From contig JBKJIT010000004.1 of assembly GCA_046598345.1 (NCBI GenBank), positions 137,226 to 201,225 on the forward strand: a stretch of 64,000 bases of DNA, given 5' to 3'. Under the pieces are notes generated by a model. That model saw only the letters and a program-made list of their open reading frames with translations. It did no database searches and was not told the origin of the DNA. Source of the DNA: Minisyncoccia bacterium. Lineage in GTDB: Bacteria; Patescibacteriota; Minisyncoccia; Phycocordibacterales; UBA918. Numbering within the stretch: the stretch's first letter is position 1; each line of letters begins with the position of its first letter. A program made the position numbers and the translations under genes. Below, piece by piece: positions 2,624 through 42,514 of the stretch.

Positions 2624-3910
2624 ATGACTATGATCGAAGAAAATATCACACACGCAAAGGACACTGAGATTGGTACCATTCCAAATGTTCGGGGAGGTCG
2701 CAGCTTTCCGCTTCTTGGTATTGGACTTGCGATACTTCTTGCAACAGCGACGTTTTTTTCAGGTATGTATTTGGCCTCAGGTCCAAAGCTTGAAGCGAGT
2801 GTCGGATCGTTTTTCTTGCCACCAGTTGCTGACCCGACAATAAACCTTGATGAATTTTGGCAGGTGTGGAAGTTGCTCGAAGAAAAATTTGCTGCGGGAA
2901 CAACAACGGATCCGATTTCAAATGAGGAACGAATATATGGAGCCATTGAGGGACTTGTTGCGTCCTATGGTGACCCGTACACCGTATTTTTACCACCTAA
3001 GCAAGCAGAACTTTTCGAAGACGATATTTCCGGCAATTTTAGTGGGGTAGGTATGGAGGTGGGTATCCGTGATGATATCCTAACGGTCATTGCGCCGCTT
3101 CCTGAATCTCCAGCAGAAAAGGCAGGTATTCTTGCAGGGGATTACATTGTTCGTATTGATGGAACACAAACAGAGAACATGAGTGTTGACGAGGCGGTGC
3201 GGCTCATTCGAGGAGAAAAAGGAACTGAAGTGAAACTTACGCTCCTCCGTAAAGATACTGAAGAACTCATTGATATTTCCATTGTGCGAGACACGATTTC
3301 AATTCCTACCAGTAAGACTGAGATAAAGGATTCTGTCTTTGTTATTTCACTCTACAGCTTCAATGCGCTTGCGGAGGCAGAGATGCAGGATGCTCTTCGT
3401 CAGTTTGTAAAAAGTGGAAAAAAGCGTCTCGTGCTCGATCTTCGAGGAAACCCTGGTGGGTACTTACAGGGTGCAGTTGGGATTGCGAGTTATTTCCTTC
3501 CCGTTGGAAAAGTGGTGGTGCGAGAAAGCTTCAGTGAGAGCGAAGAGGAGCATGTGTATAGGAGTACCGGAAAAGTAGTAGGAAACTTCAATCCAGACAA
3601 CTTTGTTGTGCTCGTCGACGGTGGTTCAGCCTCCGCCTCAGAGATTCTCGCTGGTGCGTTAAAAGAGCAGGGAGTAGCAACGATTATTGGAGAGCAGACT
3701 TTTGGAAAAGGTTCTGTCCAGGAACTCGTAAATCTTTCGGACGGCTCTTCACTTAAGGTCACAATCGCAAGGTGGCTTACACCAAACGGAACTTCCATTT
3801 CGCTCCAAGGCCTTGCACCAACCATTGAAGTTCTACGTACCGCTGAAGATAGAGAGGCAGAAAAGGATCCTCAGCTTGACGCCGCAATTGATTTCTTGAA
3901 AAAACACTAG
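2624..3910 (+). CDS. ctpA: Carboxyl-terminal processing protease (S41 family) with PDZ domain, N-terminal membrane anchor
   Basis: 428 aa. The segment 'GVGMEVG...ESPAEKAGILAGDYIVRIDG' is PDZ-like, and 'LVLDLRGNPGG...VLVDGGSASASEI' matches the S41 catalytic region. Confidence 0.85.
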   Translation: MTMIEENITHAKDTEIGTIPNVRGGRSFPLLGIGLAILLATATFFSGMYLASGPKLEASVGSFFLPPVADPTINLDEFWQVWKLLEEKFAAGTTTDPISNEERIYGAIEGLVASYGDPYTVFLPPKQAELFEDDISGNFSGVGMEVGIRDDILTVIAPLPESPAEKAGILAGDYIVRIDGTQTENMSVDEAVRLIRGEKGTEVKLTLLRKDTEELIDISIVRDTISIPTSKTEIKDSVFVISLYSFNALAEAEMQDALRQFVKSGKKRLVLDLRGNPGGYLQGAVGIASYFLPVGKVVVRESFSESEEEHVYRSTGKVVGNFNPDNFVVLVDGGSASASEILAGALKEQGVATIIGEQTFGKGSVQELVNLSDGSSLKVTIARWLTPNGTSISLQGLAPTIEVLRTAEDREAEKDPQLDAAIDFLKKH

Positions 3911-7160: not shown

Positions 7161-7850
7161 TTACCACTCGATCGGCTTTTGGACGTGAGCTTCTAAATAC
7201 TCATTCGTTTTACTAAAATGCCTGCAGCTGAAAAAGCCATTATACGCAGAGAAAGGGGAAGGGTGCGCAGCTTTCAGTACACAGTGTTTTGTAGGATCTA
7301 TTAAATATTCTTTGCTCTGTGCGAATTTACCCCAAAGTATAAAAACCACATGTTCTTTTTCCTCTGAGACTTTCTTAATGACCGCATCCGTAAACTCCTC
7401 CCAACCGAGTCCTTGATGTGATCCGGGTTTGTTTGCCTCTACCGTGAGCGTTGCATTCAAAAGCAACACACCTTGCTCTGACCATGCCTCAAGGTTACCG
7501 GTCTCGGGAATTACTTTACCGACATCGTTTCGTAATTCCTTGTAAATGTTTTGAAGTGATGGGGGAACTTTGACACCTTCTTGCACCGAAAAACTAAGCC
7601 CATGCGCCTGACCTTTCCCGTGGTATGGATCCTGTCCAATAATAACTACTTTAACTTTTTCAAACGGGCAAAGTTTAAATGCATTAAATACAAGATTTAG
7701 GGGAGGGAAGACAGTTCTCTCTAAATACTGAGAACGTATGGATTGTGATAGAGCCACAAAATAGGGAGCTTTAAACTCGTCCTCAAGAATTTTTTTCCAT
7801 GATTCTTCCATTTTCACGCTCATATGGTGCTCATTGTATATGAAACGCAA
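7161..7850 (-). CDS. ung: Uracil-DNA glycosylase, family 1
   Basis: Motifs 'KVVIIGQDPYHG' and 'GVLLLNATLTV' plus a C-terminal 'HPSPLSA'-like 'HPSPFSAYNGF'. The true start may be an internal Met (MSVKMEESW...). Confidence 0.9.
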   Translation of the reverse strand: MRFIYNEHHMSVKMEESWKKILEDEFKAPYFVALSQSIRSQYLERTVFPPLNLVFNAFKLCPFEKVKVVIIGQDPYHGKGQAHGLSFSVQEGVKVPPSLQNIYKELRNDVGKVIPETGNLEAWSEQGVLLLNATLTVEANKPGSHQGLGWEEFTDAVIKKVSEEKEHVVFILWGKFAQSKEYLIDPTKHCVLKAAHPSPFSAYNGFFSCRHFSKTNEYLEAHVQKPIEW

Positions 7851-7906
7851 AAGGTGCCAAGACGGATATTCCGCATTCTGTATTATGAATATGATATTCT
7901 ATAGCC

Positions 7907-8500
7907 ATGATAATCATCGACATCGAGGCTTCGGGGACAAATTACGAGAAACATTCGATTGTTTCCTTGGCGGCGCTAGATATTGAGAATCCGGAGAATC
8001 GCATGTATGAAGAGTGTCGAATTTGGGACGGCGCACATATATCTCCAGAGTCGCTCGCAATTAGTGGGTTTAGTGAGGAAGAGGCGCGTGATCCTCAAAA
8101 GAAGTCAGAAGGGGAGGTAGTCCGCATGTTTTTAGAGTGGTCTCAGCACTTTGCAGATCGAACACTTGTCGGTCAGAATGTTTCATTCGATCGTGATTTC
8201 CTCAGGGCAGCATCCGAGCGAGAGGGACTTTCTTGGGATTTGGCACACCGAACGCTCGACACTCATTCATTTTGCTACATGCACATGGTGAAGCGTGGCA
8301 TAACGCCACCCATTGACCCCGATCATCGCAGATCAGCGCTCAACATGGATGCAGTACTGAACTATTGTGGTATTCCTGATGAACCTCAACCTCATAACGC
8401 ACTTACGGGAGCTCTTTGCCACGCTGAAGTTGTATCCCGACTTCTGTACAACAAAAAATTACTCCCTGAATTTGACGCATTTCCTATACCTTGGAACTAA
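7907..8500 (+). CDS. DEDDh 3'-5' exonuclease (DnaQ/epsilon-like)
   Basis: 'IIIDIEASG' (Exo I), 'GQNVSFDRDFL' (Exo II) and 'HNALTGALCHAEVV' (Exo III). Confidence 0.7.
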   Translation: MIIIDIEASGTNYEKHSIVSLAALDIENPENRMYEECRIWDGAHISPESLAISGFSEEEARDPQKKSEGEVVRMFLEWSQHFADRTLVGQNVSFDRDFLRAASEREGLSWDLAHRTLDTHSFCYMHMVKRGITPPIDPDHRRSALNMDAVLNYCGIPDEPQPHNALTGALCHAEVVSRLLYNKKLLPEFDAFPIPWN

Positions 8501-8696
8501 GACCATTCGCTGTCCACGACATTTTTGATGCGTACGTAGTCCGAGTGAAGGCACGTGGTACTATATATTCATGAGTTCACCGAAAACTTCTGGAGGAATC
8601 ATTCCATCATTTGCCCTTCCTAAGGCACAGGCGATTTTTCCAACTTTTTCTCCAAAAAAGAAAAAAAGTAAAACTCCTGAAGGCCGACAAAAGAAA

Positions 8697-9377
8697 ATGC
8701 ATTGTCGTGTGATGACTGATCTCTTTGAGACTGATGATGCTGTGCAGTCATGGCGCGTTTTTCGCATCATGTCTGAATTTGTTCAAGGATTTGAAGTCCT
8801 CCGAAAGTATGGAACTGCCGCCACGTTCTTTGGAAGTGCGCGTACGTTGCCCGGAGAAGTATCCTATAAAGCGGCAGAAGAGCTTGCTGCACGTCTTGCA
8901 AAGAATGGCTTTGCAATCATTACCGGCGGCGGTCCAGGAATTATGGAAGCGGCAAATGTCGGTGCGTACAAGGTGGGCGGATTGTCAGTAGGACTTAATA
9001 TCGAACTCCCTATGGAGCAGAAGCTTAATCCGTACGTAACTGAATCTGAAAATTTCCATTTCTTCTTTTCACGAAAGGTTATGCTCTCATTTGCATCGGA
9101 AGTCTATGTGTATTTCCCAGGAGGTTTCGGTACACTCGATGAACTTTTTGAAATTATTACGCTTATTCAGACTAAGAAAATCAGTAAAATTCCGGTTGTA
9201 CTCTACGGAAAGGAGTTTTGGACTCCACTTCTTACTTTCATGCGGAATGGACTCGGAAAGGAGTTTAAGACGATCACACCTGAAGACATGGATCTCATGC
9301 ATCTCGTTGACTCTGTCGATGAAGCATATGCATATATTACGAAGCATGTAGAGCCAGTTTCCGAGCGGCAAGTGTAA
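8697..9377 (+). CDS. LOG family protein, type II (cytokinin riboside 5'-monophosphate phosphoribohydrolase-like / TIGR00730)
   Basis: 'SWRVFRIMSEFVQGFE', 'ATFFGSAR', 'GGGPGIMEAAN' and 'PGGFGTLDELFE'. The track ORF begins at 8571, but the upstream 40 aa look non-coding, so the start is placed at MHCRV/MTDLF. Confidence 0.8.
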   Translation: MHCRVMTDLFETDDAVQSWRVFRIMSEFVQGFEVLRKYGTAATFFGSARTLPGEVSYKAAEELAARLAKNGFAIITGGGPGIMEAANVGAYKVGGLSVGLNIELPMEQKLNPYVTESENFHFFFSRKVMLSFASEVYVYFPGGFGTLDELFEIITLIQTKKISKIPVVLYGKEFWTPLLTFMRNGLGKEFKTITPEDMDLMHLVDSVDEAYAYITKHVEPVSERQV

Positions 9378-9381
9378 GTCT

Positions 9382-10314
9382 ATGTCAAACCATTATTTAT
9401 CACGCATACAGACCTTCACGGAGGACACGCTTCCTGATTTGGATGAGGTTGTCTGTGCTGCGCTTGAACTTTTTAGTGAAACTGCATCAGCGAGACTTGA
9501 TGTATATACATATACAAAACCGCTTATCATTGGAAGCGCCAATGCAGGGAGTACAGGGAAAATTCTATTTAAAGAAACACGTGCACTCTTTGCAGATGAA
9601 AGTACCTACCATGAGGTTTTGATGCGTAACTCGGATATTGATGCCGTATATATTATCTCTGCGTCGGGAGGGAAGCATGCTGTTCGAATTGCTGAGGAAC
9701 TTCAAAAACAAGAACTCCCGGTAGTACTTATTACATCGAATAAAGAAGCACCGGGAGCGGCATTTGTTAAGGAAGTGCTCACATTCCCACACATGCGGGA
9801 GCCGTATACGTATAATACTTCAACGTACATGGGCATGATGCTCGGCATGAGTTCTGAATCTCCAAGTGATATTCTTACCTTTCTTGAGCAACAAGTTCAG
9901 CCACGTATACCCAAAAACTTAGATCAGTACCAGTCGTTTATTCTTATGGTGCCGGGAATCTACGAGGATCTACGTCCCATGTTCGAAACAAAATTCGATG
10001 AGCTCTTTGGTCCGTATGTACGTGGGCGTGCCTTTACCGTGGAAGAAGTAAAGCATGCCAAAACAGTCATTCCGTCAGAAACAGAATTTTTTATAGATTT
10101 TGGTGGTGAACAAGATCTTTTTGGAGATAGTGCACATAGACTTCATATTCCTCTTCCACAGAATCATGGTCCTGTCGCACTCTTTGCGCTCGGATACTTT
10201 GTCATTGGACACATTCAAAAACAGAGTCATCCGTATTTTAAAGAACATATTGCCGAGTATGCTGAGCAGGCTTCAAAACTATTTGATCAGCATATTTCAG
10301 TGATTGTTGAGTAA
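9382..10314 (+). CDS. SIS-domain-like protein (putative sugar-phosphate isomerase/binding)
   Basis: 'PLIIGSANAGSTGKI' ... 'AVYIISASGGKHAVRIAEELQKQELPVVLITSN' fits the SIS fold pattern. It sits in an operon with a ROK kinase. Confidence 0.4.
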   Translation: MSNHYLSRIQTFTEDTLPDLDEVVCAALELFSETASARLDVYTYTKPLIIGSANAGSTGKILFKETRALFADESTYHEVLMRNSDIDAVYIISASGGKHAVRIAEELQKQELPVVLITSNKEAPGAAFVKEVLTFPHMREPYTYNTSTYMGMMLGMSSESPSDILTFLEQQVQPRIPKNLDQYQSFILMVPGIYEDLRPMFETKFDELFGPYVRGRAFTVEEVKHAKTVIPSETEFFIDFGGEQDLFGDSAHRLHIPLPQNHGPVALFALGYFVIGHIQKQSHPYFKEHIAEYAEQASKLFDQHISVIVE

Positions 10315-10315
10315 T

Positions 10316-11176
10316 ATGGCGTACATCCTCTTTGACATTGGTGGCACGAATACCCGCATTGCAAGATGTGATGATTTTGCATCATTTGAAACGCCGATAA
10401 AGTTCAAGACGCCACCAACTTTTGAAGCGGGCATGAAAGCGATGGGAGATGCAATCCGTACGCTCGTGCATCCTGGGGAGGTGATACACGCACTCGGAGG
10501 AGGAATACGGGGTCCGCTAAATCATGAAAAGACGATGATCGTGAGTGAAAAAACCTTGATTGATTGGGTTGGGAGACCGCTTGCGGACACGCTTTCACAT
10601 ACCTTTAATGCTCCGGTATACCTAGAAAATGATACAGCGGTTGTTGGCCTTGGTGAAACGGCGTTTGGAGCAGGGAAGGGGTACTCCATTGTTGCATACC
10701 ATACGGTAAGTACTGGCGTGGGTGGCGCCCGTTTTGTGAATGGCCGCCTTGATAGTGCAAGTGTTGGTTTTGAACCAGGGCACCAGGAACTTGATATTGA
10801 TAGGTCACTTCTTGGACATCATACTGACCATACCCTTGAAAACTTGGTTTCCGGAAATGCTCTGGAAAAGCGAAGAGGTGTCAAACCATATGAAATTGAT
10901 CAGGCTGACCCGGTGTGGAATGAACTCGGAGGGTATTTGGCCCACGGGCTAAAGAATACAATCGTTTACTGGTCACCTGATGTGATTGTACTTGGGGGCT
11001 CTATGATCGTTGGAAAGCCCCGGATCTTCTTAGAGGACATTGTTCGCCACACAGAAGCCCTCTTAAAGGGATTTCTGCAGGTTCCGCCTATTGTGGACGC
11101 GCTTCTCAAGGATGACGGAGGTCTCTATGGCAGTATGATTCTACTTTCGAGAAGAGTAGAAAAAACTAATAGATAA
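10316..11176 (+). CDS. ROK family sugar kinase (glucokinase-like)
   Basis: 'LFDIGGTNTR' and 'ENDTAVVGLGE'. The start is placed at MAYILFDIGG, because the track start at 10304 overlaps the upstream stop. Confidence 0.8.
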   Translation: MAYILFDIGGTNTRIARCDDFASFETPIKFKTPPTFEAGMKAMGDAIRTLVHPGEVIHALGGGIRGPLNHEKTMIVSEKTLIDWVGRPLADTLSHTFNAPVYLENDTAVVGLGETAFGAGKGYSIVAYHTVSTGVGGARFVNGRLDSASVGFEPGHQELDIDRSLLGHHTDHTLENLVSGNALEKRRGVKPYEIDQADPVWNELGGYLAHGLKNTIVYWSPDVIVLGGSMIVGKPRIFLEDIVRHTEALLKGFLQVPPIVDALLKDDGGLYGSMILLSRRVEKTNR

Positions 11177-11365
11177 GCCATATTCACTTTTTTTGGTGGG
11201 AAATTATGGCTTATATCCTCAGTTCAGGGCAGGGAAGGGTGGACAGAGGTGCTTTGACGACTGTCTAGACTTATGAGTTGTACATGAATGGTGTGCAGTA
11301 CGCATAATATGGCTTAAAATAAAGAGATATGAAGTATTGACACAGTATGAAATCGATTGCATAAC

Positions 11366-11393
11366 TTGACTTTTGGTCCAAATATGCTAAAAT
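11366..11393 (+). promoter_or_regulatory. Sigma70-type promoter with extended -10 (TTGACT-N16-TGcTAAAAT)
   Basis: Read directly. It is followed at about 11404-11425 by a short hairpin GCGGCUUAGGCCGU and a U6 run. Confidence 0.4.
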
Positions 11394-11617
11394 AGACGCA
11401 TAAGCGGCTTAGGCCGTTTTTTGTTGGATAAGACCTTATACCTATTTTATCTAGTTTACTTACAGCAGTATTCGCTGTAACGAACGTCGTTGCGGTACCA
11501 GTAGCTGATACCGCATATGGGAACATTGCAACAAATAATACCTCTATCGCTCATATAGCAGTAGCCGGAAATGAAGTAGAAGAATCAGTCCGTGCATACT
11601 TCAGCGATATACCTGTC

Positions 11618-11881
11618 ATGATTCAAGTCGCACGTTGTGAATCAACGTTTCGACATACCTTAGCAGACGGATCAGTGCTCCGAGGACGAGTAGACCCAGC
11701 AGACACTGGTGTAATGCAGATTAACTCTCGTTATCACGGTAAGCGTGCTGCGGAACTCGGCCTTGATCTCACTGTCCTTAAGGACAACATGGCATTTGCG
11801 CGTAACCTGTACGAAAGGCAGGGAACTCAACCATGGAGTGCATCAGCACCTTGTTGGGAGCGCACTATTGCAATGCGTTAA
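11618..11881 (+). CDS. Lytic transglycosylase (SLT family 1, VirB1/EtgA-like 'MQINS' type). The reading frame is open upstream to 11432 with no canonical start codon
   Basis: 'ARCESTFRH...DTGVMQINSRYHG' matches the SLT E-S...GLMQINS signature. The in-frame upstream stretch 'ILSSLLTAVFAVTNVVAVPVADTAYG...' looks like a signal or anchor segment but contains no ATG, GTG or TTG. Confidence 0.6.
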   Translation: MIQVARCESTFRHTLADGSVLRGRVDPADTGVMQINSRYHGKRAAELGLDLTVLKDNMAFARNLYERQGTQPWSASAPCWERTIAMR

Positions 11882-11885
11882 GAAC

Positions 11886-11915
11886 AAAAAGACCGCCTTT
11901 GGGCGGTCTTTTTGT
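11886..11915. terminator. Rho-independent terminator (aaaaagaccgcctttgggcggtcttttt)
   Basis: Perfect 9-bp GC-rich stem flanked by an A tract and a T tract. Confidence 0.75.
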
Positions 11916-12086
11916 GGCCAGAAAATAAGGAGTGCAACGACTATATTTTCTGAGTCCGTCAGAATGTGCTTACAAAAAGCTTCATTCTGACGAACATATT
12001 CTAATTCTAGGGCCATCTCGAGTTCCTTGCCGCCGCACACGTGAGGCAAAATAATCACGTCCACTAAATTATATACTTGGATGCTT

Positions 12087-12500
12087 TTACCCCTCCTTAT
12101 CCAATTTCCAACCCGTTCCAGCTCCAAAAGCTGCAATGTACAGTAGAGATCCAAGAATAGCTAAATCCTTCATAAACATGACCTGTTCCATAGGGTTTTC
12201 TCCCCACTTACTTGGGCCGTGGAAAATGAATGCCACTAGGAGGGTAAAGAGAGCAAGTGCGACTGCAGATTGACGAATTTTCATTCCTAGAATAATGCCG
12301 AGTCCCGCAAGCGTTTCGATAAGTGCTGCTCCCCATGCGAGAAGAAGGGGAGCAGGGAGGCCTATAGAGGCGATGTATCCTGCTGTCCCGTCAATTCCCA
12401 TAAATTTTTGAATACCTGCAAGAAGGAAGAGTCCTCCAATAAGAATTCGTGCGATGAGGGTGCCGTGGCTTTTGAAACAATCTATATACGTTGAAGACAT
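12087..12500 (-). CDS. DoxX family membrane protein
   Basis: 'ARILIGGLFLLAGIQKF' is a typical DoxX signature, with 4 TM helices. The start is placed at MSSTYID. Confidence 0.7.
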   Translation of the reverse strand: MSSTYIDCFKSHGTLIARILIGGLFLLAGIQKFMGIDGTAGYIASIGLPAPLLLAWGAALIETLAGLGIILGMKIRQSAVALALFTLLVAFIFHGPSKWGENPMEQVMFMKDLAILGSLLYIAAFGAGTGWKLDKEG

Positions 12501-12570
12501 ATGTGTGATTAGATTTTTATATAATATTAAGAACCTGTACAAAGTATAGCAAATCAGGGAATATAGAAGG

Positions 12571-13032
12571 ATGCACTACTGGTTAATGAAAACAGAGCCC
12601 GAAGCCTACTCGATAGATGATCTCAAACACGATAGGGTAGGGATGTGGGATGGTGTCCGTGGATGGGCCGCGCGGAATCATATGCGAGATGAAATGAAAA
12701 AAGGTGATCAGGTACTGTTTTACCACTCTAGTACCGAAGTAATAGGGGTTGTTGGGCTTGCGATCATTGACTCGAAGGAAGCCTTTCCTGACCCTACACA
12801 GTTTAATACAAAGCATGCGTATTACGATCCAAAATCGAAGAAAGACGCCCCGAGATGGTTTTCAGTGAACCTAAAATTTATAAAGAAATTTAAGGAACCC
12901 GTTACACTAGCTCAGATCAAAGCAGACCCATTTTTTAATGACATGCTTGTTGTGCAAAGGGGAGTGAGGCTTTCGATACAACCTGTTTCTGAAAAGCATT
13001 ATAAGAGAATCCTGGAAATGAGTAAGGATTAA
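12571..13032 (+). CDS. EVE (PUA-like) domain protein
   Basis: 'MHYWLMKTEPEAYSIDDL' is the hallmark EVE N-terminus. Confidence 0.85.
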   Translation: MHYWLMKTEPEAYSIDDLKHDRVGMWDGVRGWAARNHMRDEMKKGDQVLFYHSSTEVIGVVGLAIIDSKEAFPDPTQFNTKHAYYDPKSKKDAPRWFSVNLKFIKKFKEPVTLAQIKADPFFNDMLVVQRGVRLSIQPVSEKHYKRILEMSKD

Positions 13033-13186: not shown

Positions 13187-13957
13187 ATGAGGATTGGATT
13201 CTTCGACTCTGGAGTCGGCGGCTTCACGATCCTCAACGCCGTTCGTGGCGCACTCCCTGAATACGATTATCTGTATTACGGTGACACTGCCAATCTTCCG
13301 TACGGTGATAAGACAGAAGAAGAGGTGTATGCGTTTACGGAGGAAGCAGTACGCACTCTTTTTAATCAGGGTGTACACCTCGTAATTCTTGCTTGCAATA
13401 CCGCCTCTGCAGAAACCCTCCGTAAACTGCAAGATGCACTCATACCACATGCGTTTAAAGACAGACGCATTTTAGGGGTGATTATTCCCACAATTGAGAC
13501 CATAATTGATTCGGGTCTTACTAAAGTACTTATGATTGCGACAAATCGAACCGTGAGCTCTCATAAATACGAACTTGAGCTTTTGAATCGTGAGCCATAC
13601 CCGATCACTTTTACATCGATTGCGACTCCAAAAATTGTGCCATTTTTAGAAGATGGAAAATTAAGTGCAGCAATGACCTATCTCGTGGAAATGATCGACG
13701 GGGTAGTGGGGGAGGTAGAAGCGCTTGTTCTTGGATGCACACACTACGTACTCCTCAAGCACCTCATACAAAAAAAATTTCCACATCTCAAGGTCATTTC
13801 GCAAGATGAAATAATTCCTAAAAAACTTTCCCAGTATTTGCTAGCTCATTCTGAGATTGAGCAGAAACTTACGACCCATGGCTCACTTGAAATTATTCTA
13901 ACCAAGGATTCAGTAGAGTACAGAAACAAGATGCTCAATCTCTTTAGTGTGAAGTAG
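13187..13957 (+). CDS. murI: Glutamate racemase
   Basis: 'GFFDSGVGG' and 'ILACNTAS' (catalytic Cys). The start is at MRIGFF. Confidence 0.88.
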   Translation: MRIGFFDSGVGGFTILNAVRGALPEYDYLYYGDTANLPYGDKTEEEVYAFTEEAVRTLFNQGVHLVILACNTASAETLRKLQDALIPHAFKDRRILGVIIPTIETIIDSGLTKVLMIATNRTVSSHKYELELLNREPYPITFTSIATPKIVPFLEDGKLSAAMTYLVEMIDGVVGEVEALVLGCTHYVLLKHLIQKKFPHLKVISQDEIIPKKLSQYLLAHSEIEQKLTTHGSLEIILTKDSVEYRNKMLNLFSVK

Positions 13958-14054
13958 GTGCTAGGGGAGTTATGAAGCTCTAGAGTATATACGTCGCACA
14001 ATATATCTTTTACGACCCATATACTATAGCACCACTTCCCTGCATCTCATTATA

Positions 14055-14080
14055 AAAAGACGCACCGGGGTGCGTCTTTT
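14055..14080. terminator. Bidirectional terminator (aaaagacgcaccggggtgcgtctttt)
   Basis: Perfect palindromic GC stem with flanking A and T runs, between murI (+) and the 14104 minus-strand gene. Confidence 0.7.
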
Positions 14081-14103
14081 GTACTGTGCACAGCTTCCTT
14101 GCC

Positions 14104-14637
14104 TTATGCTGGGTTGGCTTTGAGTTCGACTTGCAGTTTTCTCCTCCGCCCCCGATCTTCCGGTTTTACGCGGATGTATTTGATCATGCTGCTTTGGTCT
14201 CCGGTTTGATCGTTTTCCATGCTCCGCCTATACCTTTCAATTTCAACTAGGCTCATTCCGCTTGGTATCAGGTATAGCTTGGGTCGTATGGAAATCTCTA
14301 CGAGCTCGCCATCCATTCCGGTTAGAAGAACTTCTTTAATGAGTCTCATCCTGTCTTTTCTTGTGAATCCAGGTCTCTGTACCAAAAAATGCCAAACTCT
14401 GTTAGCAAGTAGTTCTTCAATGTGATTGTCGTTACTTTGAAGTATGTGTACCGTTGCCGTATCGATTGGAATCCAAGTCGTAGGAAGTATTCGTAGAACT
14501 GATTTCTCTGCATTCATAATACTATCGCAAACCATATCTACATTGTGAAGAATTGCCAACACGCTAAAGCCAATAGCGGGTAATACAAAAAAGATCAATA
14601 CACTGAACACAATTAAAATCCAAAGAGAAAGCTCCAT
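14104..14637 (-). CDS. Hypothetical membrane-anchored protein
   Basis: N-terminal TM segment. It has its own TTGACA-N17-TATCTT promoter and a GAGGAG Shine-Dalgarno 7 nt upstream of the ATG. Confidence 0.5.
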   Translation of the reverse strand: MELSLWILIVFSVLIFFVLPAIGFSVLAILHNVDMVCDSIMNAEKSVLRILPTTWIPIDTATVHILQSNDNHIEELLANRVWHFLVQRPGFTRKDRMRLIKEVLLTGMDGELVEISIRPKLYLIPSGMSLVEIERYRRSMENDQTGDQSSMIKYIRVKPEDRGRRRKLQVELKANPA

Positions 14638-37849: not shown

Positions 37850-38005
37850 AGTCTTGATTATACTCTGTTAAAGATTACAAAAATGAACTAATACACTAAT
37901 TAGGATTCCTTCAAAGTAAAATTTCTAATTCACTTCGCTAATATGAATTTACTCCCCGACCTCGCGGCCAGGACATTAGGTATAGTCCTGGCATCGCTCT
38001 GGTTT

Positions 38006-38052
38006 TTGTAGCAAAAGAAAAAGTCTCCCTGCGGAGACTTTTTCTTTTGCTA
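38006..38052. terminator. dnaJ terminator: 21-bp perfect stem (GUAGCAAAAGAAAAAGUCUCC / GGAGACUUUUUCUUUUGCUAC). A second 8-bp hairpin lies at about 37955-37980
   Basis: Read directly. Confidence 0.65.
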
Positions 38053-39123
38053 CAAACCTTCTTTTTGGAGATCTTCTACCAATTTTCTTGCAGTTCGGGA
38101 TAACTTCTTAGGAATGTCGACGTGGATTTTTACCAAGAAATCACCACGCCCTCCATCTGAAGGCACTCCACGTTCACGAATACGAAGCATTTCTCCGTGC
38201 TTTACTCCTTCTGGAATTTTAATTTTTACGATGCCATCGAGTGTCTCAACTCCGTATGTATTCCCAAGTAATGCGTCAGTGAGCTTAACTGGAAGATTGC
38301 TGAGGAGATTTTTTCCGTCTCGAACAATTGTTTGGTGTGGAGCAACATGGACTTTAATATACAAATCTCCCGGCACTCCTCCCTGTACTGCTTCGCCTCG
38401 TCCTGTCATACGAATCATCTCACCGTGCTCAATTCCTGCAGGAATATTGATATCAATCTGATCCTCTACTTTACGAATACCCTTACCATGACAATCAGGA
38501 CATTTTACCTTTGGCATCTTGCCGAGGGCTCCACACGCTGCGCACTCACGCACTGTAGTAAAGTTCCCCAAGATACTTTGGCGAGTTTCTCGAACTTTTC
38601 CATTACCATTACATACACTGCAGGTCGTCATTTCAGTTCCCTTTTCCGCGCCAGTCCCTGTGCATGTAGAACAGGTATTGTTTTTCATGAGCTTAAGCGA
38701 GCGCTTACTACCGAAAACAGATTCTTTGAATGCAAGTTCGATATCAACGGAAATATCATTGCCGCGTGATTGGCGCTTTCCACTTCGTGCACCTCCTCCG
38801 AAAATATCTCCAAAGTTTTCAAAGATGTCATTGAGGTCAAATTCAACATTTTGAGCATTGAATCCACCCTGAAAACCACCCCAACCAAATGGCCCCTGGT
38901 TTGGGCTTCCTCCACCGCTGTATGAACGGCCATATGCGTCGTATTCCGCGCGTTTCTTGTCGTCACTTAAAATCGAATACGCCTCACTGATTTCCTTGAA
39001 TTTAACCTCATCACCAGTCTTTTTGTCTGGGTGATACTTAGTTGCAAGCTTACGAAAAGCCCGCTTTACCTCGTCTTTTGAGGCTGTTTTTGTAATCCCT
39101 AGAATAGTGTAGTAATCCTTCAT
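38050..39123 (-). CDS. dnaJ: Chaperone DnaJ
   Basis: J-domain 'YHPDK', G/F region and four CxxCxGxG zinc-finger repeats. Confidence 0.92.
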   Translation of the reverse strand: MKDYYTILGITKTASKDEVKRAFRKLATKYHPDKKTGDEVKFKEISEAYSILSDDKKRAEYDAYGRSYSGGGSPNQGPFGWGGFQGGFNAQNVEFDLNDIFENFGDIFGGGARSGKRQSRGNDISVDIELAFKESVFGSKRSLKLMKNNTCSTCTGTGAEKGTEMTTCSVCNGNGKVRETRQSILGNFTTVRECAACGALGKMPKVKCPDCHGKGIRKVEDQIDINIPAGIEHGEMIRMTGRGEAVQGGVPGDLYIKVHVAPHQTIVRDGKNLLSNLPVKLTDALLGNTYGVETLDGIVKIKIPEGVKHGEMLRIRERGVPSDGGRGDFLVKIHVDIPKKLSRTARKLVEDLQKEGL

Positions 39124-39236: not shown

Positions 39237-41135
39237 CTATTTATCTGTTTTTGAATCTTCTTCAGAAATATCAGCGTCAGTAACGTTTTCATCAGTTTTT
39301 TTCTCTGTGGCGTTCGCCTGCCCACTGGTATCACTCTGTCCTTGCATCGCGCCTCCAATTTTTTGCATTTCAGTACTCAGTGTTTGTGTTGCAGCTTTAA
39401 TTGCTTCCACGTCGTCCTTGTCCTTTACTTCCTTGAGGGATGTTACTGCTCCTTCAACACTCGTTACCAGATCCGCCGGTACCTTGTCCTTATGGTCTGT
39501 GAGTGATTTCAGAGCTGTGTAGATCATCTGATCAGCAAGATTGCGAGATTCAATAAGTTGCTTCTTTTTTTCGTCCTCACCAGCATGTTCTTCTGCATCC
39601 TTTTTCATGCGTTCGATATCTTCCTCGGTAAGTCCGGAAGTTGCCTCGATGCGGATCGTCTGTTCTTTGTTGGTTGCTTTGTCCTTCGCGGTTACTTTGA
39701 GTACACCGTTACTGTCGACATCGAAGATCACTTCAATTTGTGGCATGCCACGGGGCGCTGGTGGAATTCCATCCAGGATAAATCGGCCAAGTGATTTGTT
39801 GTCAGCTGCCATAGGGCGTTCACCTTGCGTGATGTGAATTTCAACTGATGTCTGTGTGTCCGCAGCGGTTGAGAAAACTTGTTCACGTTTCGTAGGAATG
39901 TGTGTATTTTTTTCAATGAGTTTTGTTGCTACTCCTCCCATAGTTTCGATACCGAGTGAAAGCGGGATCACATCTACAAGCGTAATATCGTGCACGTCTC
40001 CCTGGAAAATTCCTGCCTGAATCGCTGCGCCGAGCGCAACTACCTCGTCTGGGTTTACCGATTTGTTTGGTTCTTTTCCAAAAAGTTCACGTACTGCTTG
40101 TACGATAGCAGGCATACGTGTCTGCCCTCCTACAAGAATAATCTCATCGATGTCCTCCTTCTTAAATGGAGATGCTTCGAGCGCTCGCTTCGTAATTTCA
40201 ATTGATCGGTCTACAAACTCATGTGCAAGTTCTTCAAGTTTTGCCCTAGTAAGCTTAAGTAAAAGGTGTTTAGGTCCATTGGCGTCTGAGGTAATAAACG
40301 GAATGTTAATCTCCGCTTCGCCTGTTGTGGAGAGTTCGTGCTTAGCCTTCTCTGCAGCCTCGTCAAGTCGCTGAAGCGCAAGCGGATCATTCCCAAGGTC
40401 GATGCCTTCGAGGCTTTTAAATTCCTGAATGAAGTGTCGTACGATCTTCTGATCAATATCCCGTCCTCCCATGTGTGCATCCCCATCTGTTGACTGCACC
40501 TCAACAACATCATCTCCTACATCGAGTACGGTGATGTCAAATGTTCCTCCCCCGAAGTCGTATACCACAATCTTTTCGTCTTTCTTTTTATTGAATCCAT
40601 AGGCAAGAGCTGCTGCTGTAGGTTCATTAATGATGCGCAGTACATTTAGTCCTGCGATCTTCCCTGCATCCTGTGTTGCTTTTCGTTGTGCATCATTAAA
40701 ATAGGCAGGCACGGTAATAACAGCTTCAGTGATTTTCTCACCGAGCTTCGCCTCAGCGTCGGCCTTAAGCTTCGAAAGGATCATTGCGGACACTTCCTCA
40801 GGACGGTAGTCCTTTTCTCCCATGTGGACCAAGACACCTTTGTCAGGACCTTCCTTTACTTCATATGGAACGATTGCTTTGTCGCTCTGGACAGCTGGCT
40901 CATCAAAATTGTGTCCCATGAATCGCTTGATTCCGTAAATCGTATTTTTTGGATTTGTTACTGCTTGTCGCTTAGCAATTTGGCCCACGAGACGCTCCTT
41001 TGTCTTAGAGATAGCCACAATTGAAGGAGTAGTACGATTACCCTCACTATTTTCAATGATGGTCGGTTCACCGCCTTCAATAATTGCCACTGCAGAGTTT
41101 GTTGTTCCCAAATCTATTCCAAGTATTTTTGACAT
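39237..41135 (-). CDS. dnaK: Chaperone DnaK (Hsp70)
   Basis: '[11 protein letters not shown]', 'DLGGGTFD' and '[11 protein letters not shown]'. Confidence 0.95.
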
Positions 41136-41156: not shown

Positions 41157-41741
41157 TTAATTTTCTTGTGCTACTCCAACGCCAACTTTTGCAGGTCGAA
41201 TCACTACGTCATTCCGTTTATACCCTTTCTGGAGAACCGAGATTATGGTGTCCTGCTTTTCAGGGTCATCTACCGGAATATTAGCTAATGCTTCATGTTC
41301 GTGGGGGTTAAATTGCTTTCCGAGTGTTTCAATTTCGGTAACGTCGTAACGTTTAAGGAGACTCATGAGAATACTCTGAATCCCGAGAATGCCCTCTCGC
41401 CACTTCGGATCAAGTGATGTGGTGTCGAGGAGCGCATGCTCAAACCCATCAACGAGCGGCAAAATATTTCCAAGAAATGCATCGACTTGTCGTTCGCCAG
41501 TACGAAGTGATTGTTCTTCAATACGTCGCTTACTGTTTAAGAAATCTGCTTTAGTACGCTGCAGGTTTTCGAGCAGATCAGCCTTCTCGGTCTCAAGTGT
41601 TCTTACTTTCTCACGAAAGCTTTTAAGCTTGTCCTGAAGTCGTTCTTCAGTTTCTATTTCTTCAGCTTCTTCGCTCTCTACGTAATCGGCGTCGTCTTCT
41701 CTCTGCACTTCTTCATCAAAATTATCTTTTCTGTCTTCCAT
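41157..41741 (-). CDS. grpE: Nucleotide exchange factor GrpE
   Basis: Acidic N-terminus, coiled-coil region, and C-terminal 'GYKRNDVVIRPAKVGV'. Confidence 0.9.
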   Translation of the reverse strand: MEDRKDNFDEEVQREDDADYVESEEAEEIETEERLQDKLKSFREKVRTLETEKADLLENLQRTKADFLNSKRRIEEQSLRTGERQVDAFLGNILPLVDGFEHALLDTTSLDPKWREGILGIQSILMSLLKRYDVTEIETLGKQFNPHEHEALANIPVDDPEKQDTIISVLQKGYKRNDVVIRPAKVGVGVAQEN

Positions 41742-41750
41742 AGATTCGGT

Positions 41751-41779
41751 ATTATACAGATGGTTTCTCTGTGTGTCAA
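41751..41779 (-). promoter_or_regulatory. Perfect consensus sigma70 promoter (TTGACA-N17-TATAAT) ending about 9 nt before the grpE ATG; near-leaderless
   Basis: Minus strand: TTGACAcacagagaaaccatctgTATAATaccgaatctATG. Confidence 0.6.
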
Positions 41780-41812
41780 AAACGGCTTGATTTAGACCTG
41801 GGGTGAATTTTA

Positions 41813-41850
41813 GTAACCGGCCACCGGTCTTAAGACCGGTGGCCGGTTAC
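41813..41850. repeat. 38-nt perfect palindrome GTAACCGGCCACCGGTCT-TA-AGACCGGTGGCCGGTTAC, 35 nt upstream of the grpE -35
   Basis: Read directly. It is not CIRCE and not HAIR. Confidence 0.6.
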
Positions 41851-42085
41851 TATCTCGTACGTCCAAGTTGCTAAGTAAATTTTTAATACTTAAAAATTAA
41901 CTAAGCACTTGCGACCCCACCTCGCGGTTTCTTTGTTTCAAAACTAAGAAACATCGCTGCGGTCGTCAGATTATCGTTTTGGCGTCAGGTCACTAATTCA
42001 CTCCGCTCATAAGTGCCTCCTGCCCGGCCTCGCATCGTATCGTCCTATGAAGGACGATACGATGCTCCGGCTGAGTAAGCGAAGA

Positions 42086-42112
42086 AAAAGCCCCTCAATG
42101 GGGCTTTTTCTT
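42086..42112 (-). terminator. rpsI rho-independent terminator (aaaaagcccctcaatggggcttttt)
   Basis: Perfect stem with a U tract immediately after the rpsI stop. Confidence 0.75.
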
Positions 42113-42514
42113 TTAACGCTTACTCCACTGTGGGGCTCGTCGCGCCTTTTTGAGGCCAAATTTCTTTCGCTCAACTGCACGTGGATCTCGCTTAAGGAAT
42201 CCACCACGTTTAAGTGGAATACGGCGATCTGCTTTTTCCTTTACGAGTGCGCGTGCAATACCGAGACGGATTGCTTCAGCTTGTGAAGAAAGTCCTCCTC
42301 CTTGTACTTTTGCAGAAATTTCGTAGGTCTCGATTCCAGCATCCTTTGTTTCAAGTACTGAAAGTACATTCTTCTGAAGCGCGAGTGCGCTAAAGTATTC
42401 AGCGATAGGACGCTCGTTCACGATAATTCGCTGCTCCTTTGAGGGAGTTATACGAACTCGCGCAGAAGCTGTTTTTCGTCGTCCAATGCCTTCAATATAC
42501 TGTTTGGTTGCCAT
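42113..42514 (-). CDS. rpsI: 30S ribosomal protein S9
   Basis: Ends with the S9 tail '...RRAPQWSKR'. Confidence 0.92.
   Translation of the reverse strand: MATKQYIEGIGRRKTASARVRITPSKEQRIIVNERPIAEYFSALALQKNVLSVLETKDAGIETYEISAKVQGGGLSSQAEAIRLGIARALVKEKADRRIPLKRGGFLKRDPRAVERKKFGLKKARRAPQWSKR

Follow-up and report, generated by a model that had tools for sequence, protein, structure and literature searches.

Repetitive elements of the REP/BIME, ERIC, BOX, and Correia types are noncoding, multicopy sequences that form hairpins and carry no gene of their own. They lie in the 3' flanks of genes, often by terminators, and make up mosaics with tandem and partial copies. Known roles of REP sequences are stabilization of mRNA 3' ends and weak termination. 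Two described operators, CIRCE (HrcA) and HAIR (HspR), are inverted repeats upstream of dnaK operon promoters. Here we analyze the 371-nt spacer between rpsI and grpE (positions 41742 to 42112) in a 64,000-nt stretch of a Minisyncoccia bacterium genome (contig JBKJIT010000004.1), which is called the window throughout. It resembles both groups, because it has an inverted repeat upstream of the dnaK operon promoter and contains copies of an element that shares the REP-type features of sequence and position listed above. By its sequence matches, this element family is widespread and multicopy in bacteria of the candidate phyla radiation (CPR), in Saccharibacteria and in other lineages, and CPR genomes are very small and densely coded. 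Full-text literature searches by sequence and by topic found no description of the family, which is apparently undescribed.

Results

The rpsI-grpE spacer contains two tandem copies of the element, m1 and m2, and a third copy, W3, lies directly behind dnaJ. When the spacer was compared with relatives by BLAST, a 60-nt core with 82 to 86% identity was found behind rpsI in two loci (L002 and L004) and behind dnaJ in another (L003), with a weaker match behind the window's own dnaJ. We built a covariance model (R1) from nine copies, using a structure drawn by hand from side-by-side reading, and searched the window plus 97 loci (717 kb), which gave 136 hits. A broader model (R2) was built from these 136 hits and run on the window with filters off. 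Copy m1 (41973 to 42083, minus strand) is a full member of the family (R1, 57.7 bits, E = 2e-12; R2, 83 bits). Copy W3 (37905 to 38015, minus strand) scored 29.8 bits with R1 and 55.3 bits with R2. Copy m2 (41852 to 41971, minus strand), in which an AT-rich hairpin replaces the apex, scored 39.1 bits with R2 (E = 2e-8). The R2 training set included m1 and W3 but not m2, and the R1 scores of m1 and W3 are independent. A further stretch on the plus strand (11877 to 11965) scored 17.7 bits with R2 (E = 0.017) and overlaps a terminator-like hairpin. Either decay of a former copy or chance similarity could explain this hit.

The models show a core of about 100 to 120 nt that is predicted to fold as a three-way junction. 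From 5' to 3', the closing helix (P1) is followed by a 3-bp helix (P2, GNC/GN'C), a tandem G·A with an R-Y pair, a hairpin of variable sequence, a short junction, helix P3, a two-by-two internal loop, helix P4, a bulged A, and the apex hairpin. The tandem G·A and the variable hairpin make up the first arm, and the second arm is capped by the near-invariant ACUUAUGAGCG-N-AGCGAAUUAGU hairpin. This apex hairpin consists of ACU/AGU, U·U, AU/AU, a tandem G·A, an R-Y pair, a C-G pair, and a GNA or GNNA loop, and its tip is GCGNAGC. The end of the upstream gene is present twice in P1, as its inverted complement in the 5' strand and as a direct copy in the 3' strand. The copied stretch comprises the final 10 to 50 nt of the gene. 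The same 5' strand also builds the outer stem of the hairpin behind the gene.

In the alignment of the 136 copies, which was fitted to the model and so favors the structure, 92.2% of predicted-pair cells were paired, compared with about 36% when the partners were slid by one to three columns. All 33 predicted pairs showed changes on both sides. The covariation score was 0.519, compared with 0.157 for shuffles, and none of 500 shuffles reached it. With an effect this large, and in view of the slid controls, the modeled structure is very likely to be real. Furthermore, G·U pairs outnumbered A·C pairs in the core helices (93 versus 42, or 86 versus 17 without one class-specific column). This favors the upstream gene's sense strand (in the window, the minus strand) as the one that folds.

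Some copies have additional parts. An optional domain of about 110 nt (UGAGAA-hairpin-UGCAAGAGGUUG-hairpin-CAACCUGAACAG-NNNC UGUAAG GNNN) occurs in arm B at L011 8735 to 8845, L009 9790 to 9880, and L004 1510 to 1590, and in L097, L133, L068, L089, and L117. Its CUGUAAG-loop hairpin was also found alone, downstream of some copies. Many tRNA-linked copies (e.g., L037, L020, L060, and L092) have a CUGC-loop hairpin, GCAAACUGCUUUGC, with a covarying stem. It lies outside R1 and R2 and splits the inverted gene-end copy between the acceptor part and the T-stem part. In some tRNA trailers (L028 1496 to 1530, L019, L083, L093, and L120), an A/U-armed hairpin tipped by an apex-like UGAGC..GCGAU or GCGAAGC replaces the G+C-rich terminator between the tRNA and the element.

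Copy m1 has helix P2 (GCC/GGC), the tandem G·A pairs, the variable hairpin (CATCGTATCGTCCT, 42032 to 42065), P3, P4, and an apex hairpin of the invariant type (41990 to 42014). Folding it to minimum energy without constraints gives P2, P3, and P4 together with the variable hairpin and the apex. It is closed by GCCAAAACGATAA (41971 to 41983, minus strand), a diverged direct copy of an rpsI 3' end (..K R stop) that matches the rpsI ends of relatives (GGCCAAAAGATAA in L009, GGTCAAAACGATAG in L011, and GGGCAAAGCGATAA in L014). The equivalent position in tRNA-linked copies holds a copy of the tRNA 3' end. In m2, the GTTTCTT/AAGAAAC hairpin (41927 to 41952) is the variable hairpin, and the AT-rich hairpin at 41869 to 41907 takes the place of the apex. 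Apex-substituted homologues of m2 are present in L002, L003, and L008.

The copies are tied to the ends of the genes that precede them. The last codons of rpsI (GGAGTAAGCGTTAA), here called segment X, are the 5' side of a gene-end hairpin that was identified from inverted repeats (42073 to 42125, minus strand). In it, the rpsI intrinsic terminator (42082 to 42112, minus strand; 13-bp stem and U tract) is nested in a 9-bp outer stem made by the rpsI end (42117 to 42125) and its inverted copy, X' (42073 to 42081). The fold energy is -36.7 kcal/mol (z = -6.7), and in relatives the outer stem varies in step with the rpsI codons. The dnaJ stop codon is part of the perfect 24-bp stem of a gene-end hairpin (38005 to 38056, minus strand), and W3 follows directly. 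Behind rpsI, m1 lies between an inverted and a direct gene-end copy, and the layout behind dnaJ is the same. An element copy is also present behind dnaJ in L003, in the same place as W3. Read in order, the sequence behind rpsI would then be the rpsI end, the terminator hairpin, X', m1, the diverged rpsI-end copy, m2, a long palindrome, and a separate, near-leaderless grpE promoter.

A preliminary description of the spacer, made from the window alone, had listed strong hairpins between the rpsI terminator and grpE and had suggested that the stretch upstream of the palindrome is a small RNA. An inverted-repeat search found all of these hairpins, and three of the four named are parts of m1 and m2, the palindrome being the exception. 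The hairpin at 42032 to 42065, given as a palindrome with a 14-bp stem, has a 15-bp stem. The region from 41780 to 42085 folds much better than shuffled sequence on either strand (z = -10.9 and -11.7). The small RNA idea held up in that there is a conserved, covarying, structured element on the minus strand. However, it consists of two tandem copies of a multicopy family with no promoter of their own and no specific link to heat shock. A scan for sigma-70-like sites found no promoter upstream of m1 or m2. Across the family, sites matching at 9 or more of 12 positions were found upstream of 4 of 102 copies, compared with 17 of 102 downstream regions, and a terminator-like hairpin precedes 46 of the 102 copies. 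As judged from the promoter scans, the copies do not qualify as independent small RNA genes, which would have a promoter and a terminator of their own.

To find more copies, we used an exact search pattern taken from the apex of m1 (ACTTATGARCG-N(1-3)-AGYGAATTAGTRA; window 41990 to 42014, minus strand). It was present in at least 120 metagenome contigs and in no viral contig searched, and a phage origin was rejected because the apex motif is absent from viral contigs. The labeled genomes were Saccharibacteria and one labeled Paceibacterota. Up to five copies (R1 hits) occurred in one 13-kb locus. Among 125 full-length copies, 76 follow a same-strand tRNA or transfer-messenger RNA (tmRNA) gene, of 20 kinds in all, at a distance of no more than 260 nt, 22 lie behind a same-strand open reading frame (ORF) (e.g., fusA, rpsI, and dnaJ), 8 lie behind another copy on the same strand, and 13 are at contig ends. 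A copy was also present at 13 of 48 tRNA genes sampled outside the pattern search.

The tRNA-linked copies are associated with a repeat of the tRNA end. This repeat was perfect (18 of 18 positions) in 23 of the 76 copies and matched at 14 or more of 18 positions in 39 of them, compared with about 0.6 expected. It started at position -19 from the tRNA end in 15 of 46 cases and within two bases of -19 in 29 of 46. We place this start at C56 of the T loop. The repeat ended 0 to 34 nt beyond the tRNA end. The direct repeats of the tRNA 3' part are 12 to 57 nt long, with inserts of about 60 to 250 nt. Behind fusA in L072, the element body is flanked on each side by a unit made of the last 26 nt of fusA and its inverted copy. 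The two units agree at 44 of 45 nt, and the real terminator comes only after the second one. Tandem arrays occur in L050, L131, and L086, and there are truncated copies. Two loci (L060 and L086) have kept orthologous copies, both behind tRNA-Lys(ttt). The variable stems are unrelated between copies of one genome.

Bare apex hairpins were also seen in reverse orientation, between a purine-rich stretch and the AUG, just upstream of the start codons of rplN, atpG, and two other genes (L066 578 to 603 and L105; L123, near atpG; L034 and L084; L091). In L123, the insert has a copy of the same 19 nt, which contain the atpG start, on each side.

By its GrpE relatives, the window belongs to Saccharibacteria, a CPR lineage. 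The closest GrpE is only 59% identical, and six relatives keep the order rplM-rpsI-spacer-grpE-dnaK-dnaJ. The rpsI-grpE spacers of L001 and L014 are element-free and have only the terminator and the promoter. Those of L002, L003, L008, L009, and L011 are 300 to 1,300 nt long, some with small extra ORFs. Small unannotated ORFs (68 to 188 amino acids) separate the element from the grpE promoter in L008 (3708 to 3914), L011 (8968 to 9927), and L004 (1878 to 2270). Because of these ORFs, the spacer is a hot spot for added material.

No protein family was enriched within 2.5 kb of copies, where we found only housekeeping genes. Similarly, no recombinase or HUH genes were enriched near copies, and Y1 (RAYT) transposases had no homologue in the window and were not enriched near copies. 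Two genes that lie close to the element in single loci were considered as movers and rejected. In L049, tRNA-Val and an element copy are separated by a 5.3-kb island (7366 to 12690) that carries a large serine recombinase. Four homologous islands (L135 to L138, about 10001 to 11870) abut tRNA 3' ends but have no element and no repeat. Therefore, the L049 island is a nested, independent insertion unrelated to the element. In L009, an IS200-like Y1 transposase (13881 to 14549; Pfam Y1_Tnp, E = 2e-7) lies right after dnaJ, where the window has W3. It is flanked by CTTAGGGGTT(T)AACCCCTAAG palindromes that are unrelated to the element, and it was discarded because it has no window homologue and shares no hairpins with the element. 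As a separate observation, serine recombinases of about 600 amino acids form a family in CPR genomes (481 homologues) in which the 3' end of the gene overlaps the 3' end of an opposite-strand tRNA-Val or tRNA-Gly gene. Their islands target tRNA ends independently of the element.

Known RNAs did not account for the element either. Neither the window nor 18 loci had a match to an Rfam 15 family at its gathering score (hairpins hit by chance were all that appeared, with E values up to 10), and ARAGORN found no tRNA or tmRNA in the window. On these results we rejected tmRNA, signal recognition particle RNA, RNase P RNA, 6S RNA, a thiamine pyrophosphate riboswitch, and a hammerhead, for which the leads had been local resemblances (GGGGUGA.., GUCAGGUC, GAGAAAGUCCGGG, ACCUGA.., and UGA..GAA). 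A mini-ORF in the apex (AGGAGG-N5-AUG AGC GGA GUG AAU UAG, encoding MSGVN) was rejected as well. Its frame is not kept, one copy has no AUG, and it varies at second codon positions, which covary as base pairs.

The palindrome directly follows m2. It was described as 38 nt long but is a perfect palindrome of 42 nt (41811 to 41852; 21-nt arms with no spacer), and it is the longest in the window. As an RNA hairpin it would have a fold energy of -39.8 kcal/mol. Its outer bases, TAGTAACC, are the apex 3'-stem motif of the element family. The plus strand has GGGGTGAATTT just before it, and the sequence from 41802 to 41822 matches the apex 3' half at 17 of 19 positions with a 2-nt indel (GGGGTGAATTTTAGTAACCGG versus GGAGTGAATT--AGTGACCTG). 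By sequence reading, 41802 to 41822 (plus strand) is a partial, inverted copy of the apex 3' half, and this accounts for its long-range complementarity to 41996 to 42005. A long-range helix between 41802 to 41811 and 41996 to 42005 is present in folds of 41780 to 42085. We rejected it as a functional closing stem because it is not conserved in relatives and the inverted partial apex copy explains the pairing.

The palindrome had been proposed to be the operator of an uncharacterized heat-shock regulator, with conservation in related genomes as a check. It is absent from the syntenic rpsI-grpE spacers of all relatives examined (L001, L003, L008, L009, L011, and L014), although the grpE promoter is conserved. 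Such an absence had been named in advance as grounds for refuting the operator idea. At the homologous place, the window reads GAGATAG[TAACCGG...CCGGTTA]CTAAAA and L003 reads GAGATAG-CTGGATT-TACTAAAA. The half-site has no second copy in the window. Nor did the idea of an RNA terminating at the palindrome find support, because no U tract follows it (the minus strand continues with CUAAAAUUC, the plus strand with CTATCTCG) and a terminator scan was negative despite the stem. By these alignments, the palindrome is a lineage-specific hairpin and not a conserved heat-shock operator. We infer that it may have arisen in this lineage alone, when sequence derived from the element was duplicated in inverted form or expanded at the position of a gene-end hairpin. 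In L002, a run of about 120 N (3749 to 3867) lies in the rpsI-grpE spacer where the window palindrome would align, and the sequence around it resembles a collapsed or duplicated assembly of element copies.

The grpE promoter stands apart from the element copies. As first described, it is a TTGACA-N17-TATAAT site (41779 to 41751, minus strand; 12 of 12 match) ending 9 nt before the ATG at 41741. It is conserved in seven of eight relatives, with 8 to 9 nt to the ATG. This distance and the lack of a Shine-Dalgarno sequence suggest that the grpE mRNA is leaderless or nearly so across these Saccharibacteria. In the promoter alignment (window and relatives), an A/T-rich stretch before the -35, ATTTTTGACA, and the end of the promoter spacer, CATCTG directly before TATAAT, are conserved. 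Nothing upstream of the grpE -35 was conserved among relatives. The absence of known operators was borne out. CIRCE (TTAGCACTC-N9-GAGTGCTAA) had no match in the whole window with up to 3 mismatches allowed. HAIR (CTTGAGT-N7-ACTCAAG) had 4 weak matches in the window, compared with 3.5 expected by chance, and none was near grpE. The AT-rich hairpin of m2 has a CIRCE-like look (GTGCTTAG..CTTAGCA) but was discarded, because the half-sites are in the wrong order and the sequence is the family apex stem.

The surrounding genes are all on the minus strand. The rpsI coding sequence, for ribosomal protein S9, spans 42113 to 42514 and was assigned from the ORF, its translation, and the relatives with the same gene order. 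The grpE coding sequence (41157 to 41741), the first of grpE-dnaK-dnaJ, was assigned from its translation and from Pfam GrpE on homologues. It is followed by dnaK (39237 to 41135) and dnaJ (38050 to 39123). The spacer had been described as free of ORFs, and the only ones that touch it are short, out-of-frame overlaps with rpsI or grpE.

Discussion

We favor, by a small step beyond even chances, a joint proposal. The rpsI-grpE spacer would be a stack of repeated gene-end units rather than a heat-shock control region, and the element would be a non-autonomous, structure-dependent insertion module at gene ends that is carried in read-through transcripts. The module may have entered at the base of gene-end hairpins and duplicated the hairpin, with successive insertions stacking up behind rpsI. 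Having no promoter or recombinase of its own, it would be passive cargo of the predicted read-through or 3' untranslated transcripts of highly expressed genes. There, it would probably be a protein-bound 3'-end unit with the putative function of stabilizing, processing, or insulating the transcript. Insertion and decay are supported by the empty syntenic sites, the long perfect repeats, the tandem arrays, and the truncated copies, and also by the bare reverse apex hairpins and by an rpsI stack that ends in different rpsI-end variants.

Several findings weigh against this proposal. Because 46 of 102 copies are behind a terminator-like hairpin, read-through could be low. Unrelated variable stems in one genome and the orthologues retained in L060 and L086 seem to fit old, selected paralogues better than an active mobile element. 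We found no enzyme able to move the element, and the sole adjacent recombinase, in L049, is in an independent, nested island. The sequence GCGNAGC is best known as an unusually stable DNA mini-hairpin, and given this apex, the folded molecule could be single-stranded DNA rather than RNA. Finally, some bare apex hairpins point the other way and lie immediately ahead of start codons.

Some of these findings, together with others, would fit a functional noncoding RNA that is inherited vertically and is not mobile, a view to which we give limited weight. Such an RNA might be a tRNA-like or ribonucleoprotein scaffold processed from read-through transcripts. In its closing helix it would imitate the neighboring tRNA at the acceptor and T stems, and the inverted copy could switch between the gene end and its duplicate. 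The covariation and the G·U bias on the sense strand are as expected of an RNA, as are loops that stay invariant across very divergent genomes. Optional extra domains (L011, L009, L097, and L133) are found in many functional RNAs. Orthologous copies have been kept (L060 and L086), the paralogues within a genome appear old, with unrelated variable stems, and many copies persist in genomes that are otherwise streamlined. However, the perfect repeats of 18 to 55 nt, tandem arrays, fragments, reverse copies, and empty sites resemble insertion and decay. Furthermore, the same body lies behind protein genes, where there is no tRNA to mimic, and no promoter was found.

A folded, single-stranded DNA attachment site, by analogy to integron attC and CTX-phage attP(+), seems still less probable. 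A host recombinase, or a recombinase or HUH enzyme acting in trans, would insert the module at gene ends. The architecture of an inverted copy, a fork of about 90 nt, and a direct target copy is what such a site would have, and the repeat boundary is fixed in the T loop. The structure is conserved over sequence and is strand specific, the GCGNAGC tip would be very stable as DNA, and the L009 dnaJ site is exactly where an IS200-like Y1 transposase lies. Even so, the window has no Y1 homologue, and the hairpins on either side of the L009 transposase bear no relation to the element. The neighborhoods of copies show no enrichment of recombinase or HUH genes, the serine recombinase islands are independent of the element, and tandem G·A and G·U pairs fit RNA equally well.

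An operator for an unknown heat-shock regulator of grpE-dnaK-dnaJ, with a small RNA terminating at it, is very improbable: a perfect palindrome does lie about 32 nt upstream of the grpE -35 and neither CIRCE nor HAIR is available to account for regulation, but the palindrome is missing from syntenic relatives that keep the promoter, its half-site is not repeated in 64 kb, no U tract follows it, and the stretch upstream belongs to a family that lies behind tRNA genes, fusA, and dnaJ and is unrelated to heat shock.

Returning to the insertion proposal, we can extend it only tentatively. The family might be a new class of structure-dependent element of about 100 nt in CPR bacteria, which inserts at the bases of the gene-end hairpins of tRNA, tmRNA, and housekeeping genes and duplicates them. 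A folded RNA or DNA strand would re-create the target, no recombinase of its own would be used, and the GCGNAGC hairpin might be the recognition or catalytic site.

A transcriptome paper on Saccharibacteria from 2022 stated that these bacteria had no validated small RNAs (10.1101/2022.03.25.485537). An element that has covariation support and lies behind about a quarter of unselected tRNA genes, and behind tmRNA, EF-G, S9, and DnaJ genes, would rank among the most abundant noncoding features of CPR genomes. This would be so whether it is an RNA that processes or stabilizes 3' ends or a new mode of DNA insertion at gene ends. For annotation, the family should be masked before hairpin-dense CPR spacers are called operators or small RNA genes. 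With R1 and R2, the question can be tested directly in cultivated Saccharibacteria, provided that the strains carry the family.

The window palindrome differs from CIRCE and HAIR in that it has no sequence match to them, is not conserved, and does not overlap the promoter. The element differs from REP-type repeats in being a three-way junction whose loops hardly vary even between very divergent genomes, and in lying between inverted and direct gene-end copies with no associated RAYT-type transposase. Group IIC introns are similar in inserting in the sense orientation just past terminator hairpins and in depending on host read-through, whereas the element has no intron domains or Rfam hit, is ten times smaller, and duplicates its target hairpin. 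Islands that target tRNA genes share a direct repeat that begins in the T loop and reaches the tRNA 3' end or goes beyond it, tandem accretion at one site, and the use of tmRNA genes. However, the element insert is only about 100 to 250 nt with no integrase between the repeats, it also uses the ends of rpsI, fusA, and dnaJ, and an inverted target copy is always present. Compared by architecture only, integron attC and CTX-phage attP(+) have two inverted, target-like copies around a forked spacer of about 90 nt and a covarying, strand-specific structure, as the element does. Unlike them, the element has neither an integron integrase nor a link to Xer or dif, and its stem copies a different gene end at each locus.

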